From Escherichia coli (GTDB lineage: Bacteria; Pseudomonadota; Gammaproteobacteria; Enterobacterales; Enterobacteriaceae), in the NCBI RefSeq assembly GCF_013122565.1, contig NZ_CP053258.1: a DNA stretch of 64,000 nucleotides; one strand, given 5' to 3'. Made by a program: the position numbers and the translations under genes. The notes under the pieces are model-generated. The model did no database searches. It had not been told where the DNA came from and was given only the letters and a program-made list of their open reading frames with translations. This document shows, one piece after another, positions 3,335-52,784 of this stretch; position 1 is the first letter of the stretch, and each line of letters begins with the position of its first letter.

Positions 3335-6011
3335 CGAACCCTTACGTCCCGACCCCGACCGTCTGCTGGAACAAACTGCCGCGCCGCATCGGGGGAAGCT
3401 GAAAGTTTTCTTCGGTGCCTGTGCAGGCGTCGGGAAGACCTGGGCGATGCTGGCAGAAGCCCAGCGACTGCGGGCGCAAGGGCTGGATATTGTGGTTGGC
3501 GTGGTAGAAACCCACGGGCGAAAAGATACCGCCGCCATGCTGGAAGGGCTGGCTGTTCTGCCGTTAAAACGCCAGGCGTACCGTGGGCGGCATATCAGCG
3601 AGTTTGATCTCGATGCCGCCCTCGCCCGCCGCCCGGCGCTGATCTTAATGGACGAACTGGCGCACAGTAATGCGCCAGGTTCTCGTCATCCTAAACGCTG
3701 GCAGGATATCGAAGAACTGCTGGAAGCTGGCATTGATGTTTTCACAACCGTCAACGTTCAGCATCTGGAAAGTCTGAATGATGTGGTCAGCGGCGTCACC
3801 GGAATTCAGGTACGGGAAACCGTGCCCGATCCTTTTTTCGATGCCGCCGACGACGTGGTTCTGGTGGACTTGCCCCCGGACGATCTGCGCCAGCGGCTGA
3901 AAGAAGGCAAAGTCTATATTGCCGGGCAGGCGGAGCGCGCCATTGAACATTTTTTCCGCAAAGGCAATCTGATCGCCCTGCGCGAACTGGCACTGCGCCG
4001 TACTGCTGATCGCGTTGATGAGCAAATGCGCGCCTGGCGGGGGCATCCTGGCGAAGAGAAAGTGTGGCACACGCGCGACGCGATCCTTTTATGCATCGGC
4101 CATAACACCGGCAGCGAAAAACTGGTCCGCGCAGCGGCGCGGCTGGCGTCACGGCTGGGTAGCGTCTGGCACGCGGTGTATGTTGAAACCCCTGCCCTGC
4201 ATCGCTTACCGGAGAAAAAACGTCGGGCAATTCTCAGCGCCTTACGTCTGGCGCAGGAGCTGGGCGCGGAGACGGCAACACTTTCTGATCCAGCGGAAGA
4301 GAAAGCGGTAGTGCGTTATGCCCGTGAACATAATCTCGGCAAGATTATTCTCGGTCGCCCAGCCTCGCGCCGCTGGTGGCGTCGGGAAACGTTTGCTGAC
4401 CGACTGGCGCGCATCGCTCCCGATCTCGATCAGGTGCTGGTCGCGCTTGATGAACCACCCGTCCGCACGATTAACAACGCGCCGGATAGCCGCTCTTTTA
4501 AAGACAAGTGGCGGGTACAGATTCAGGGATGCGTGGTTGCCGCCGCGTTATGCGCCGTTATCACCTTAATTGCTATGCAGTGGCTGATGGCGTTTGATGC
4601 CGCCAACCTGGTGATGCTGTATCTGCTTGGCGTGGTGGTGGTCGCGCTATTTTATGGACGCTGGCCTTCGGTGGTTGCTACCGTCATTAATGTGGTGAGT
4701 TTCGATCTCTTTTTTATCGCCCCACGCGGCACGCTCGCCGTCTCTGATGTGCAATATCTGCTGACCTTCGCGGTGATGTTAACCGTCGGGCTGGTGATCG
4801 GGAACCTTACTGCGGGTGTGCGTTATCAGGCGCGGGTAGCCCGTTACCGCGAGCAACGCACACGGCACTTATATGAAATGTCGAAAGCTCTGGCGGTGGG
4901 CCGCAGTTCGCAGGACATCGCCGCCACCAGCGAACAATTTATTGCCTCCACGTTTCATGCCCGCAGTCAGGTGTTGTTGCCCGATGACAACGGTAAATTG
5001 CAGCCGTTAACACATCCGCAAGGAATGACGCCGTGGGACGATGCCATCGCGCAGTGGAGTTTTGATAAAGGCCTGCCTGCGGGTGCGGGCACCGACACGT
5101 TACCCGGCGTGCCGTACCAGATTTTGCCGTTAAAAAGCGGTGAGAAAACCTACGGGCTGGTGGTGGTGGAACCGGGGAATCTGCGTCAGTTGATGATCCC
5201 GGAACAGCAGCGCCTGCTGGAGACGTTTACGCTGTTAGTCGCCAATGCGCTTGAGCGGCTGACGCTGACCGCCAGCGAAGAACAGGCGCGGATGGCAAGC
5301 GAACGGGAACAGATCCGCAACGCCCTGCTGGCGGCGCTTTCGCATGATTTACGCACTCCGCTTACGGTGCTGTTCGGTCAGGCAGAAATCTTAACGCTCG
5401 ATCTGGCAAGCGAAGGATCGCCCCACGCCCGCCAGGCCAGCGAGATCCGTCAGCACGTGCTGAACACTACCCGACTGGTGAATAATCTACTGGATATGGC
5501 GCGAATTCAGTCCGGCGGCTTTAATTTGAAGAAAGAGTGGTTAACGCTGGAAGAAGTAGTCGGCAGCGCGCTGCAAATGCTGGAACCGGGTTTATCGTCG
5601 CCCATCAATCTTTCTCTGCCAGAACCGCTGACCTTAATCCACGTTGACGGGCCACTCTTTGAACGGGTGCTGATTAATCTGCTGGAGAACGCGGTGAAAT
5701 ACGCGGGTGCGCAGGCCGAAATTGGGATCGATGCCCACGTTGAGGGCGAAAATCTACAACTGGATGTCTGGGATAACGGCCCCGGTCTTCCGCCAGGCCA
5801 GGAGCAGACGATATTTGATAAGTTTGCTCGCGGGAATAAAGAGTCGGCAGTACCGGGGGTAGGGCTTGGGCTGGCAATTTGTCGGGCGATAGTGGATGTA
5901 CACGGGGGCACTATTACCGCGTTCAACCGACCGGAAGGTGGTGCCTGTTTTCGTGTTACACTTCCCCAGCAAACCGCTCCTGAACTTGAAGACTTTCATG
6001 AGGATATGTGA
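3327..6011 (+). CDS. kdpD: Sensor histidine kinase KdpD
   Basis: 894 aa from ATG 3327 ([16 protein letters not shown]...); N-terminal KdpD domain with P-loop GACAGVGKT, four TM helices, C-terminal HisKA/HATPase; overlaps kdpC end. Confidence 0.93.
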
Positions 6012-6685
6012 CAAACGTTCTGATTGTTGAAGATGAACAGGCTATTCGTCGCTTTCTGCGCACGGCGCTGGAGGGCGACGGTATGCGCGTCTTTGAGGCC
6101 GAAACGCTGCAACGCGGCTTGCTGGAAGCGGCAACCCGTAAGCCAGATTTGATTATTCTCGATCTCGGCCTGCCCGACGGTGATGGGATTGAGTTTATCC
6201 GCGACCTGCGCCAGTGGAGCGCGGTGCCGGTGATTGTGCTTTCCGCACGCAGCGAAGAGAGCGACAAAATCGCCGCGCTGGATGCCGGAGCGGATGATTA
6301 TCTGAGTAAGCCGTTTGGCATTGGCGAATTGCAGGCCCGTCTGCGCGTCGCATTACGCCGCCACTCTGCCACCACCGCGCCCGATCCGCTGGTGAAATTT
6401 TCCGATGTTACCGTCGATTTAGCCGCCCGCGTGATCCATCGCGGTGAGGAAGAGGTGCATCTCACCCCGATTGAGTTTCGCCTGCTGGCAGTGCTGCTCA
6501 ACAACGCCGGAAAAGTACTCACCCAGCGCCAGTTACTCAATCAGGTGTGGGGGCCAAACGCGGTCGAACACAGTCACTATTTGCGTATTTATATGGGACA
6601 TCTGCGACAAAAACTGGAACAGGATCCCACTCGCCCCCGCCATTTCATTACTGAAACCGGTATTGGGTATCGGTTTATGCTTTGA
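6008..6685 (+). CDS. kdpE: Response regulator KdpE (OmpR family)
   Basis: 225 aa, receiver domain plus winged-helix; GTG start overlapping kdpD stop (ATGTGA). Confidence 0.93.
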   Translation: MTNVLIVEDEQAIRRFLRTALEGDGMRVFEAETLQRGLLEAATRKPDLIILDLGLPDGDGIEFIRDLRQWSAVPVIVLSARSEESDKIAALDAGADDYLSKPFGIGELQARLRVALRRHSATTAPDPLVKFSDVTVDLAARVIHRGEEEVHLTPIEFRLLAVLLNNAGKVLTQRQLLNQVWGPNAVEHSHYLRIYMGHLRQKLEQDPTRPRHFITETGIGYRFML

Positions 6686-6808
6686 AAAAAGTGGCAATGT
6701 ATGGATAAAGTCATTTTTTATTCAAATATAAGGAACTTAATATTTAAAAAATGTTCCATACAATTCCTCATCATAAATGACACCGTAGCACACAAGGAGC
6801 AAGTAGCG

Positions 6809-13667: not shown

Positions 13668-15074
13668 TCAGAAGATGGTGAATGGTGCGATTACCATAAA
13701 TTTCACGTCACGCTCATCCTGGAAGATGTTACCGTAACCGCCGCCCCAGCTTGGGATGTCAGAGTGGTTGTCGTATTCGGTGAAATGCAGTTTGAACATC
13801 GTGCCTTTGGCGCGGCCGTCCTGAATGGTGTAGACCGCATCCAGGCTGTATGCAGACTCTTCAATAGTCCGGTTTTTGTCGTAGTACGCATCCGGATTGC
13901 TCTGCCAGGTCGCAGGTTTTGCATCCCATGCGTAAACGTAGGAAGCGCCGATGGCGAAGCCTGGAAGATTCCAGTTTTTCAGGTCATACATCGCACCGAA
14001 GAAGACCGCTTTTTCGCCGTTGGCGTTGAAGTCAGAACGGTTATCCCACCAGATATCCAGGCGACCATTCGAGGAAGCGTAGGTTGGGGTCATACGTTGC
14101 AGGAAGTATCCCTGCTGACCGTCAGCCTTAACCCAGGTGCCTTCGAGGCGCAAATCCACTACGTCAGCCGCCCGGTAACCAAAGGTCAACGCTTGCAGCC
14201 AGGCGGTGCCGTCATAAAGATCGTTGACGCTGCGATCGTCAACTTTATCGCGCGTACCATAGAACTGATAGCTGGTGGTTAACGGGCTACCGGCGATATC
14301 AAATTTGTAGCTGGCTTTGGCAAAATATTGATCGATATACCCTTCCGCCTGACCAAACGCCGCTTCCAGTACGAAGTTATTTTTGAAGTCGTATTTCGCC
14401 CCAAGGGAGTGCAGATAATCAACTTTGGTGGTTTTATCGTTCTGATAAAACTCATCCATTTCCAGGTGCCACGGCGCTTTGTATTCGTTGGTCCACATGT
14501 AGGAGAAACTCAAGGCACCAGCATCGCCGTAATCAAAATTCGCTCCGGCTTCCGCACCCTGATAAGTACCTGGCATAAAGCTCCAGTGCGGCGCTAACAG
14601 CGTCTGACCGGTTGGCTGAATATAACCTGCCCTCGCCCAAACCGGACCGTATTTAAATTTGGCCGCAGCTTTATACAGGCTTATACCGCTTTTGTCGCCG
14701 GACCAGTCTTCGTCATAGGCTTTATTACTTTTTGAAAACGCGATTTCGTTCGGGTGAGAGCTGTCGCCGTTTTCCGCCATTTCAATCGCCGTAAACGCAG
14801 CAATATCAAGGCCGAACATATCAGCAGCATAACCGGACTGAAAATCGAGGTTGGCATTCCAGGTGGAGTGAGAAAGGTTGGTTTTGTATTTGTCGCCGTC
14901 GGTAACATCTTTACGGTCGCGTTCACGCTGCCAGTAATAGATACCGCCGGTTAAGGTTGAATCGTCGATGAATCCTTCGGCGCGAGCCTCCGGCATTGCC
15001 ATAAAGCCCGACATTGCTGTAACACCGGCGATAGCCAGCGCCAGCGTACTACGTTTGCCACTAAACGTACGCAT
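13668..15074 (-). CDS. chiP: Chitoporin ChiP (YbfM), OprD-family outer-membrane porin
   Basis: 468 aa with signal peptide and C-terminal aromatic residue typical of beta-barrels; long upstream leader. Confidence 0.9.
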
Positions 15075-15425
15075 GGGTTAATCCTCTTTGACGTATAAAT
15101 TGCTGCACCAAAGGTGAACAGCGAAAAAATAAAAATTAAAAAAGTAGCGTTGAGAAAAGTCTCGCTGACTACAGGAACAGACTATTTTTCGCGACGCGAA
15201 TTATCAATCTCTTTCTGTAACCAGAATGTAAGAACATGAGCAACCGCACATATTTTGATGATTTTTGTTACAAGGCTTAAGTTTGCGGTTGAAAGGCTTG
15301 CAGAAGAATAAAAGCGTGAAATTCCAGCAAGATGAAAGCGGTTACATTTTATTTAATTATGTTTTGTGATTTTAAATTTATTTTATGGATAAATTGCGAA
15401 GCGGAATTAATTCGCGAAGAAAAGC

Positions 15426-15454
15426 AGAAAAAAACGCCGCAGAGCGCGGCGTTT
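15426..15454 (-). terminator. glnS rho-independent terminator
   Basis: On the minus strand: GC-rich hairpin (cgccgc/gcggcg) followed by a U-run. Confidence 0.8.
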
Positions 15455-15521
15455 GGGATTGTTTGCATATTTCTTGCCGGATGTGGCGTAAATGCCTCAC
15501 CCGGCCTGGTAGAACTTAAAA

Positions 15522-17186
15522 TTACTCGCCTACTTTCGCCCAGGTATCACGCAGCCCAACGGTGCGGTTAAATACCGGTTTTTCCGCCGTAGAATGGCGG
15601 CTGTCGAGGCAGAAGTAACCTTCACGCTCAAACTGGAATGCTTTACCCGCTACCGCGTCTTTCAGCGACGGTTCAGCAAAGCCCTGTTTGATCACCAGCG
15701 ATTCCGGGTTAATCACCGACAGGAAATCATCCGCAGCGCCTGGGTTAGGCACGCTGAACAGACGATCATACAAACGGATTTCAACCGGCAGCGCATGTGC
15801 CGCGCTCACCCAGTGAATAACGCCTTTCACTTTACGACCATCTGCCGGATCTTTGCTTAAGGTATCGGCGTCATAAGTACAGAAGATGGTGGTGATATTA
15901 CCTTCGGCATCTTTCTCGACGCGTTCTGCCTTAATCACGTAAGCATTACGCAGACGCACTTCTTTACCCAGCACCAGACGTTTGTACTGCTTGTTAGCTT
16001 CTTCGCGGAAATCGGCGCGATCGATCCAAATTTCACCGCTAAACGGCACCTGACGGCTCCCCATTTCCGGTTTGTTCGGATGGTTCGGCATGGTGACCAT
16101 TTCGCCTTCGCCCTGATAGTTTTCGATAACCAGTTTCACCGGATCGATAACCGCCATTGCGCGCGGCGCATTTTCGTTGAGATCTTCACGGATGCAGGAT
16201 TCCAGCGACGCCATCTCAATGGTGTTGTCCTGCTTGGTCACGCCAATGCGTTTGCAGAACTCACGAATAGAAGCCGCAGTGTAACCACGACGACGCAGAC
16301 CAGAAATGGTCGGCATACGCGGGTCATCCCAGCCTTCAACGTGCTTGTCGGTCACCAGCAGGTTCAGCTTACGCTTGGACATCACAGTGTATTCCAGATT
16401 CAGGCGCGAGAATTCGTACTGGCGCGGGTGAACAGGAATGGTGATGTTGTCCAGCACCCAGTCGTACAGGCGACGGTTGTCCTGGAATTCAAGCGTACAC
16501 AATGAGTGCGTAATACCTTCCAGCGCATCGCTGATGCAGTGGGTGAAGTCGTACATCGGGTAGATGCACCACTTGTTGCCAGTCTGGTGGTGTTCAGCAA
16601 ATTTAATGCGGTACAGCACCGGATCGCGCATTACGATAAATGGCGACGCCATGTCGATTTTCGCACGCAGGCAGGCTTTACCTTCTTCAAAACCACCGGC
16701 ACGCATTTTTTCGAACAGCGCCAGGTTCTCTTCAACGCTGCGGTCGCGGTACGGGCTGTTTTTACCCGGCTGCGTCAGGGTGCCGCGGTATTCGCGGATC
16801 TGTTCCGGTGTCAGTTCATCAACATACGCCAGGCCTTTATTGATCAGTTCGATCGCATAGGCGTGGAGCTGATCAAAATAATCGGAGGAGTAACGGACGT
16901 TACCAGACCAGTGAAAACCTAACCACTCTACGTCGTTTTTGATCGAATCGACATACTCGATATCTTCTTTTACCGGGTTAGTGTCGTCGAAACGCAGGTT
17001 GCACTGGCCTTTATAGTCCTGGGCGATCCCGAAGTTCAGGCAGATAGATTTCGCATGCCCAATATGCAGATAGCCATTCGGCTCCGGCGGGAAACGGGTG
17101 TGTACTGTGGTGTGCTTACCACTGGCCAGATCTTCATCGATGATCTGACGGATAAAGTTAGTCGGGCGGGCTTCTGCCTCACTCAT
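15522..17186 (-). CDS. glnS: Glutaminyl-tRNA synthetase
   Basis: 554 aa; class I HIGH (HIGH) and KMSKS-like (VMSKR) motifs. Confidence 0.97.
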
Positions 17187-19335: not shown

Positions 19336-19489
19336 CTTATTCCCCCTACGAGAACCCTAATTGGCTCGTTTAAAGCCGTATTTTTATTTTGCTGCAAATT
19401 GTACTGCCGATGTTCTGTAATCAGATTGTTAGATCATCTGCTACAGAGTGTGTGAAAATTTAATTCGTATCGCAAATTAAACGCGTGTC

Positions 19490-19511
19490 TTTTGTGAGTT
19501 TTGTCACCAAA
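19490..19511. promoter_or_regulatory. CRP binding site in the divergent nagE-nagB control region
   Basis: tTGTGAgttttgTCACca matches TGTGA-N6-TCACA. Confidence 0.75.
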
Positions 19512-19667
19512 TATCGTTATCATCACTCCCTTTTACTGGCTAAACCAGAAAACTTATTTTATCATTCAAAAAATCAGGTCGGATTGACGCCTGTCTGCGC
19601 AAATCCAGGTTACGCTTAAAGATGCCTAATCCGCCAACGGCTTACATTTTACTTATTGAGGTGAATA

Positions 19668-51753: not shown

Positions 51754-52784
51754 TGATTCGGTTGTACCCGGAACAACTCCGCGCGCAGCTCAATGAAGGG
51801 CTGCGCGCGGCGTATCTTTTACTTGGTAACGATCCTCTGTTATTGCAGGAAAGCCAGGACGCTATTCGTCAGGTAGCTGCGGCACAAGGATTCGAAGAAC
51901 ACCACACTTTTTCCATTGATCCCAATACTGACTGGAATGCGATCTTTTCGTTATGCCAGGCTATGAGTCTGTTTGCCAGTCGACAAACGCTATTGCTGTT
52001 GTTACCAGAAAACGGACCAAATGCGGCGATCAATGAACACCTCCTCACGCTCACCGGATTGCTGCATGACGACCTGCTGTTGATCGTCCGCGGTAATAAA
52101 TTAAGCAAAGCGCAAGAAAATGCCGCCTGGTTTACTGCTCTTGCGAATCGAAGCGTGCAGGTGACCTGTCAGACACCGGAGCAGGTTCAGCTTCCCCGCT
52201 GGGTTGCTGCGCGCGCAAAACAGCTCAACTTAGAACTGGATGACGCAGCAAATCAGGTGCTCTGCTACTGTTATGAAGGTAACCTGCTGGCGCTGGCCCA
52301 GGCACTGGAGCGTTTATCGCTGCTCTGGCCAGACGGCAAACTGACATTACCGCGCGTTGAACAGGCGGTGAATGATGCCGCGCATTTCACCCCTTTTCAT
52401 TGGGTTGATGCTTTGTTGATGGGAAAAAGTAAGCGCGCGTTGCATATTCTTCAGCAACTGCGTCTGGAAGGCAGCGAGCCGGTTATTTTGTTGCGCACAT
52501 TACAACGTGAACTGTTGTTACTGGTTAACCTGAAACGCCAGTCTGCCCATACGCCACTGCGTGCGTTGTTTGATAAGCATCGGGTATGGCAGAACCGCCG
52601 GGGCATGATGGGCGAGGCGTTAAATCGCTTAAGCCAGCCGCAGTTACGTCAGGCCGTGCAACTCCTGACACGAACGGAACTCACCCTCAAACAAGATTAC
52701 GGTCAGTCAGTGTGGGCAGAGCTGGAAGGGTTATCTCTTCTGTTGTGCCATAAACCCCTGGCGGACGTATTTATCGACGGTTGA
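51753..52784 (+). CDS. holA: DNA polymerase III delta subunit
   Basis: 343 aa; start overlaps lptE stop. Confidence 0.93.

Follow-up and report, generated by a model that had tools for sequence, protein, structure and literature searches.

The AT-rich glnS–chiP gap of Escherichia coli very probably holds the glnS 3' end and a complete chiPQ control region

Organization of the glnS–chiP gap

The 447-bp gap between glnS and chiP (15075..15521) in the window, the 64,000-nt stretch of Escherichia coli DNA analyzed here, very probably has two parts, the glnS 3' end and then the whole chiPQ control region. On the minus strand, the order would be the glnS stop codon, a decayed REP, a strong intrinsic terminator, a distal NagC-like operator, an AT-rich spacer of ~150 bp, a GTAACA motif, a CRP-like box (centered at -70.5), a sigma-70 promoter with a NagC operator in its spacer, a transcription start at 15172, and a leader of 98 nt. 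The functional elements named here (ChiX, ChiZ, Hfq, Rho, and NagC) are all already published and constitute ordinary E. coli chiP biology. Correct labels for the gap are a glnS terminator and REP; a chiP promoter that carries NagC sites and probably a CRP site; and a 98-nt leader, or ChiZ, with its ChiX site. The term "450-nt leader" is a wrong label for the gap. In PGAP annotations of E. coli, chiZ is generally missing and a spurious hypothetical ORF is sometimes called in this gap. The features are as follows.

15476..15509, unstranded: degenerate REP, an imperfect palindrome just downstream of the glnS stop codon
15425..15454, minus strand: glnS intrinsic terminator (stem 15454..15432, then U-tract), from a terminator scan
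15406..15428, unstranded: putative distal NagC-like operator TCTGCTTTTCTTCGCGAATTAAT, centered at -245 and abutting the terminator U-tract
15253..15405, unstranded: AT-rich spacer, GC ~0.33, not conserved between genera
15266..15271, minus strand: GTAACA motif (-99..-94), conserved in alignment A2
15235..15250, unstranded: CRP-like box TGTGCGGTTGCTCATG, centered at ~-70.5, class I spacing
15202..15207, minus strand: -35 hexamer TTGATA, invariant in 13 taxa, -35..-30 relative to the K-12 chiZ 5' end
15183..15205, unstranded: proximal NagC operator GATAATTCGCGTCGCGAAAAATA, centered at -22 and filling the promoter spacer, a published site verbatim
15179..15184, minus strand: -10 hexamer TAGTCT, near-invariant, ending 7 nt before the mapped start
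15075..15172, minus strand: chiP 5' untranslated leader of 98 nt, which is the ChiZ sRNA by identity to K-12 chiZ
15144..15172, minus strand: 5'-terminal stem-loop of the leader, predicted in MFE and centroid folds
15124..15143, minus strand: U/A-only tract UUUUUUAAUUUUUAUUUUUU of 20 nt, GC 0.0, predicted to be unpaired
15102..15122, minus strand: second leader hairpin, then AAUUUAUA, a predicted fold directly upstream of the pairing site
15082..15093, minus strand: ChiX pairing site CGUCAAAGAGGA (also written CGTCAAAGAGGA), an exact 12-nt ChiX complement
15072..15074, minus strand: chiP start codon, from ORF 13668..15074

Two minus-strand ORFs in the ORF listing flank the gap, 15522..17186 (554 amino acids, stop codon at 15524..15522) and 13668..15074 (468 amino acids). 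By the annotation of matching genes in E. coli RefSeq genomes, these are glnS and chiP, respectively, and the product of the latter has 99% identity to E. coli chitoporin ChiP. The gene order (nagE, glnS, chiP, chiQ) is the same as in K-12. The gap has a GC content of 0.38, as compared to 0.51 over the window as a whole, and just 1.5% of all windows of 447 bp reach a value this low; the preliminary description of an AT-rich gap of ~450 bp is accurate on both counts. Within the gap, the leader has a GC content of 0.37 and the terminator plus REP one of 0.50, with 0.34 for the DNA between promoter and terminator. An 801-bp query spanning the gap had matches in 5424 of 5426 complete E. coli genomes, in which the flanking genes are annotated as glnS and chiP. 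The promoter and leader were likewise found in 5424 of these 5426 genomes, with at least 99% identity in 4301. The closest E. coli match to the 801-bp region among complete RefSeq genomes is 99.1% identical, and between the terminator and the ATG there are only a handful of differences between the window and K-12.

For comparison across Enterobacterales, the chiP loci of 12 other taxa were obtained by protein (a probable Salmonella locus, a divergent Salmonella, Klebsiella, Citrobacter, two Enterobacter, Kluyvera, Cronobacter, Shimwellia, Serratia, Edwardsiella, and Ewingella; n=13 with the window). All 12 have glnS upstream of chiP, with a gap of 385–580 bp. The GC content of the gap is low in all genera (0.35–0.45), and its sequence is not conserved. 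The alignment of these loci (A2) spans the 286 bp before the chiP ATG. A GH20 chitobiase gene (~885 amino acids) follows chiP, with or without chiQ, in Cronobacter, Shimwellia, Serratia, Edwardsiella, Ewingella, and an atypical Salmonella (~3950-6400 in loci L128-L132 and 3938-6395 in L123), and is absent from the chiP locus of E. coli, Klebsiella, Citrobacter, and Kluyvera. A pattern scan of genome contigs for CGTCAAAGAGGAN{5,9}ATG, with 15 specified bases, was too loose and was discarded. Nearly all of its 120 matches were due to chance, in unrelated phyla, and the only true chiP loci among them were L071 (Enterobacter sp. Ag1) and L103 (E. albertii).

The 3' end of glnS

The glnS terminator was found by a terminator scan independently of the preliminary description. 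It begins 68 nt past the glnS stop codon and has the sequence AAACGCCGCGCTCTGCGGCGTTT then TTTTCTGCTT. Its stem of 9–10 bp is G+C-rich, with 6 G-C pairs, and is followed on the minus strand by TTTTTTT, as expected of an intrinsic terminator; the stem contains a perfect 9-nt inverted repeat (15432-15440 / 15446-15454).

The REP in the window aligns to the canonical K-12 REP with five substitutions. The region 15465-15506 scored 28.1 bits (E=0.009) against the REP-derived Rfam family naRNA4, which is below the gathering score of 59.5, and a classical REP consensus had no match at up to 3 mismatches. "Degenerate" is a fair label for this element. The coordinates proposed earlier for the terminator and the degenerate REP were accurate to ~3 bases. 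The glnS–chiP gap of K-12 is 576 bp in length and has three REP copies, whereas that of the window is 447 bp with one decayed REP; the two have their terminator, promoter, and leader in common. This difference (window 15455-15521 versus 3759-3990 of K-12 locus L001) is a polymorphism in REP copy number within E. coli.

The leader and transcription start

Comparison with the characterized chiP leader identifies the last 98 bases of the gap as K-12 chiZ. In pairwise alignment, the window is identical at 98 of 98 bases to this ncRNA (b4808, 708236..708333), which in K-12 RefSeq sits immediately before the chiP ATG, the same position as in the window. Because K-12 chiZ is annotated as 98 nt directly before chiP, the leader is 15172..15075, or 22% of the gap, and not ~450 nt. 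Only the curated K-12 annotation carries chiZ, and the PGAP-annotated genomes matched here list chiP only.

The chiZ/chiP start site was mapped in K-12 by dRNA-seq (Adams et al. 2021, eLife, PMC7815308), and transfer of this mapping would place the transcription start in the window at G 15172. The cloning primers of that study begin at GTAGTCAGCG, and its Term-seq 3' end at K-12 708334 corresponds to window position 15074 (PMC7815308). ChiZ was described there as an RNA of ~90 nt on Northern blots that is Hfq-dependent, has a Rho-dependent 3' end, and acts as a ChiX sponge (PMC7815308). These three properties, published for K-12, are expected to apply to the window by virtue of sequence identity. 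The same study reports a Rho-dependent 3' end at K-12 708624 (Adams et al.), which is 290 nt into chiP and equivalent to window position ~14784 (minus strand); its location is in keeping with the Rho termination within the gene that ChiX triggers (Bossi et al. 2012).

The preliminary description had assigned the rest of the gap, beyond the terminator and REP, to the leader. This does not hold, as start mapping in K-12 gives a short leader that begins 98 nt before the ATG, and a -35/-10 block lies at -35..-7. The ~250 bp of AT-rich DNA upstream of the start is untranscribed promoter and operator DNA, since the start maps 98 nt before the ATG and the -35/-10 block fits that start.

The leader is predicted to have a hairpin at its 5' end, and single-sequence folds predict such a hairpin in nine of the 13 orthologous leaders despite their differing sequences. 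A U-rich tract likewise recurs in orthologous chiP leaders. Published work includes a prediction that a UA-rich region of chiP mRNA binds the Hfq rim, and the U/A-only tract (15124..15143) is probably this region, if the exact bases are the same. Ribosome-binding-site fragments of chiP that bind Hfq and are cleared by PNPase are also described in published work. The third recurring element, in single-sequence folds of most orthologous leaders, is a G+C-rich hairpin followed by AUUUU. The fold of the leader is no more stable than that of shuffled sequence (z=-1.15), and RNAalifold on the 13 leaders, whose 5' halves do not align, returned neither a consensus structure nor covariation support. 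Rfam gave no relevant match at E up to 10, and no family corresponds to the leader, the spacer, or a riboswitch. We rejected a long structured cis-regulatory leader (riboswitch or attenuator) as an explanation of the gap on the basis of the Rfam result, the z-score, and the lack of a consensus structure.

The promoter and proximal NagC operator

A 29-nt block, TTGATAATTCGCGTCGCGAAAAATAGTCT (15207..15179), spans -35 to -7 relative to 15172 and is near-invariant in the 13 Enterobacterales. The block includes TTGATA and TAGTCT separated by 17 bp, with the latter reading TAATCT in two of the 13 taxa (E. kobei and Shimwellia). It is likely to be the chiP -35/-10, placed for exactly the start mapped in K-12. 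The generic sigma-70 scan missed the chiP promoter, the -10 of which matches three of six consensus positions.

The operator that fills the promoter spacer, GATAATTCGCGTCGCGAAAAATA, is listed by Oberto 2010 as the NagC site "ybfM proximal" (PMC3098098, Table 1). A NagC matrix built from nine other operators in that work (PMC3098098), with the ybfM proximal site excluded, ranks it first of the ~64,000 positions in the window, at 22.2 bits, level with the nagE operator, which is also in the window. The proximal operator is invariant or nearly so in the 13 taxa. NagC binding and repression of chiP that is relieved by GlcNAc-6-P are reported in secondary sources; a review and a recent preprint contain statements on the repression, both citing Plumbridge et al. 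2014.

The divergent nagE–nagB region in the same window provided positive controls for the NagC and CRP scans. Both known operators, nagE (19459-19481) and nagB (19553-19575), are recovered with the NagC matrix, and the CRP consensus scan finds TGTGAGTTTTGTCACC (19493-19508) between them. The fourth best NagC score in the window, 13.4 bits, belongs to GTTATTTTGTTGCGCACATTACA at 52482-52504.

The distal NagC-like site and AT-rich spacer

A second NagC-like site (15406..15428) abuts the U-tract of the glnS terminator. In the window it scores only 9.0 bits, with a poor left half that overlaps the terminator U-tract, and two other weak sites (at -197 and -227) outscore it in the NagC matrix. In 12 of the 13 taxa the orthologous site, ..TTCGCG..GCGAATTAAT, precedes the proximal operator by 222–236 bp, and in E. 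kobei by 162 bp. Its scores range from 8.4 to 21 bits across taxa, and the sequence around it does not align between genera. The distal site has TCTTCGCGAATTA in common with the published chbB distal operator. Taken together, the window sequence and its orthologs suggest that NagC may bind at 15406-15428.

The distances between distal and proximal sites are either 222–226 or 233–236 bp, clustering about one helical turn apart. Phase coherence at 10.5 bp is R=0.76, with p ~6e-4 if the taxa are treated as independent and 0.02 on distinct values, the taxa being related. This is suggestive of operators held in helical phase.

Between the two operators the DNA is AT-rich (GC 0.325 for 15206-15405). 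Mean identity across the 13 taxa is 0.35–0.40 at 15271-15330, and 15331-15405 lies outside A2. Because a NagC-like site is conserved 222–236 bp upstream in 12 of 13 taxa, we infer that the spacer is loop DNA, which suggests that the AT-rich stretch between the NagC sites would form a repression loop constrained in length or flexibility and not in sequence.

Two conserved elements are found at the promoter side of this DNA. The first is GTAACA, in which G, T, and C are invariant in A2 and two A's nearly so. The second is the CRP-like box, TGTGC-N6-TCATG, whose TGTG and TCA are invariant in the 13 taxa and whose flanks vary. The box has three core mismatches to TGTGA-N6-TCACA and by sequence alone is not significant. 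As ybfM (=chiP) is on the list of CRP targets from Genomic SELEX (PMC3105977), the box at -70.5 may be a CRP site. The combination of a distal operator in rough helical phase, the CRP-like box, and GTAACA might represent a loop-plus-activator design of chiP conserved from Escherichia to Serratia, Edwardsiella, and Ewingella. We regard this as speculative and on balance doubtful; if true, it would explain a long AT-rich gap whose sequence is free to vary.

The spacer could instead serve mainly as a platform for nucleoid proteins, through silencing or bending of the H-NS, Fis, or IHF type, and not as passive DNA of a NagC loop. A GC content of ~0.33 over 200 bp is typical of DNA preferred by H-NS, and low GC (0.35–0.45) is maintained in all genera without conservation of sequence. 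However, the conserved features flank the spacer and resemble NagC sites, and we consider this explanation unlikely, while noting that it is compatible with a NagC loop.

Still less probable is a second promoter within the spacer, such as TTAAAA-18-TAAAAT at 15375..15346, that would produce an additional, longer chiP transcript under some conditions. There is one promoter-like match on the chiP strand, and Adams et al. observed unexplained bands of ~200–500 nt with a chiP probe (PMC7815308). AT-rich DNA readily gives -10-like hexamers, though, and the one match found compares with 1.3 expected by chance. Furthermore, the site at 15375..15346 is not conserved outside Escherichia, and Adams et al. 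interpreted the extra bands as products of degradation or read-through (PMC7815308).

That the whole stretch from terminator to ATG (~350 nt) is transcribed as a single AT-rich leader is very improbable. The gap is long and AT-rich, and its length is kept at 385–580 bp across genera, as such a leader might be. Against this, the K-12 start was mapped 98 nt before the ATG in a sequence identical to that in the window, the near-invariant -35/-10 block is positioned for that start, the genera do not align upstream of ~-100 except at the distal NagC-like site, and no leader or riboswitch in Rfam was matched.

Lastly, it is hardly credible that the gap encodes a small protein: ORFs of 40–79 amino acids are listed in it and in some E. 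coli genomes PGAP annotates a 61-amino acid hypothetical protein on the other strand (WP_001365525.1, between glnS and chiP in SMN013SH2), but the equivalent frame in the window has two internal stop codons, none of the small ORFs of the gap belongs to a Pfam family, and the ORF runs antisense through the REP and terminator in a region not conserved between genera. WP_001365525.1, which is also found in NZ_CP023673.1 and whose equivalent position in the window is 15334-15519 (plus strand), is almost certainly a spurious gene call.

The ChiX pairing site

Within the first 100 nt upstream of 15074, a site for sRNA pairing was found at 15093..15082. The site is the exact complement of nucleotides 45–56 of K-12 ChiX and occurs once in the window, as compared to an expectation of 0.008. 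It covers the Shine-Dalgarno sequence GAGG (15086..15083), 8 nt before the AUG. Its core, GTCAAAGAGGA, is kept in 12 of the 13 Enterobacterales, which were fetched by protein and not chosen on the ChiX motif. The predicted duplex between ChiX and chiP has an energy of -21.0 kcal/mol, a value reached by three of 500 shuffles. The single-stranded region of ChiX does recover the site, but energy alone does not single it out, as other places in the window score as well; RNAduplex with full-length ChiX was abandoned, having yielded meaningless hybrids with long loops. Because duplex energy is not discriminating, the site is argued from the exact match of 12 nt, from its placement on the Shine-Dalgarno, from conservation, and from published genetics. 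Pairing between ChiX and chiP has been documented by compensatory mutations, and pairing at the ribosome-binding site leads to translation block, decay, and Rho termination inside chiP (PMC7815308). Compensatory mutagenesis of this pair has been carried out in both K-12 and Salmonella. Retention of both the NagC operator and the ChiX site in the taxa compared confirms, in terms of sequence, that the two control layers are ancient in Enterobacterales. A slightly stronger duplex with the single-stranded region of ChiX (-24.4 kcal/mol) is predicted at 5569-5760 of the window (minus strand) and is probably due to chance.

Several other loci bear on the distribution of ChiX sites. In the atypical Salmonella enterica GCA_050507695.1 (L123, 2406-2503), the ribosome-binding-site region has CCTCTATAAGGAA in place of GTCAAAGAGGA, and the ChiX complement is lost. 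The chiP protein of this genome is 86% identical, the next gene is chitobiase instead of chiQ, and the promoter and both NagC sites are intact; this chiP may be a natural escape from ChiX silencing. In Enterobacter sp. Ag1 (L072, 11277-11311), CCCGTCAAAGAGGAAT provides a 16-nt perfect ChiX complement at the ribosome-binding site of an ORF beginning with MSFTRKMLPLVAAVTLACS, a lipoprotein-like signal; the ORF is incomplete at the end of the locus. This ORF may be another ChiX target. Citrobacter sp. FP75 (L086, ~6685-6710) has ATACGTCAAAGAGGA, which shares 15 nt with the chiP leader, directly after a terminator-like hairpin and before a 247-amino acid ORF (MGNCPNSNERLFGG...); it could be a chance match or an acquired ChiX-pairing site. 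The pattern match in Mixta sp. (L106, 1-40) is the antisense strand of a chiX gene (reverse complement AAATTCCTCTTTGACGGGCCGATAGCAATAT), which shows that the ChiX seed is conserved in Erwiniaceae.

Model of chiP control and comparison with known systems

Both types of control anticipated in the preliminary description are borne out: NagC-type repression by the published operator, verbatim at 15205..15183, together with reported repression, and sRNA control near the ribosome-binding site by the 12-nt ChiX complement at 15093..15082 together with the literature. NagC is known to loop between operators at other targets. At chiP, NagC on the proximal operator would occlude the promoter and would probably loop to the distal operator ~223 bp away, and CRP would presumably act at this promoter as well. 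Imported chitosugars would give rise to GlcNAc-6-P and thereby cause release of NagC. In the leader, the layout would be a 5' hairpin, the Hfq-binding U/A-only tract, a second hairpin, and the ChiX site over the Shine-Dalgarno. Constitutive ChiX would pair over the Shine-Dalgarno and block ribosomes, leaving chiP open to decay and to intragenic Rho termination. At low ChiX, Rho-dependent 3'-end formation at the start codon would free the leader as ChiZ, which would then sponge ChiX. The RNA steps of this model are carried over from K-12 and Salmonella because the sequence is identical.

The closest known system is the chiP (ybfM) 5' UTR, or ChiZ, of K-12, whose RNA is identical to that of the window, ChiX complement included, and is preceded by the same promoter block. 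The window also resembles the decoy circuit formed by ChiX (MicM/SroB/RybC), chiP, and chb in E. coli and Salmonella, in that the target lies over the ribosome-binding site, a UA-rich Hfq region is present, and chiQ is located downstream, as expected for Rho-mediated polarity. Studies of this circuit include Figueroa-Bossi 2009, Overgaard 2009, Rasmussen 2009, and Bossi 2012. The chiX gene and the chb operon are absent from the 64-kb window, which therefore holds no more of the circuit than its target half. The chiP proximal operator is like other NagC operators in having a TT-N9-AA core and a central CGCG and in overlapping a promoter. As in NagC promoters with paired operators (nagE-nagB, chbB, glmU, fimB, and galP; PMC3098098), a second NagC-like site is found upstream in the window. 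The nagE and nagB operators score similarly to the chiP proximal operator and are ~94 bp apart in the window, as compared to a spacing of ~223–236 bp for chiP.
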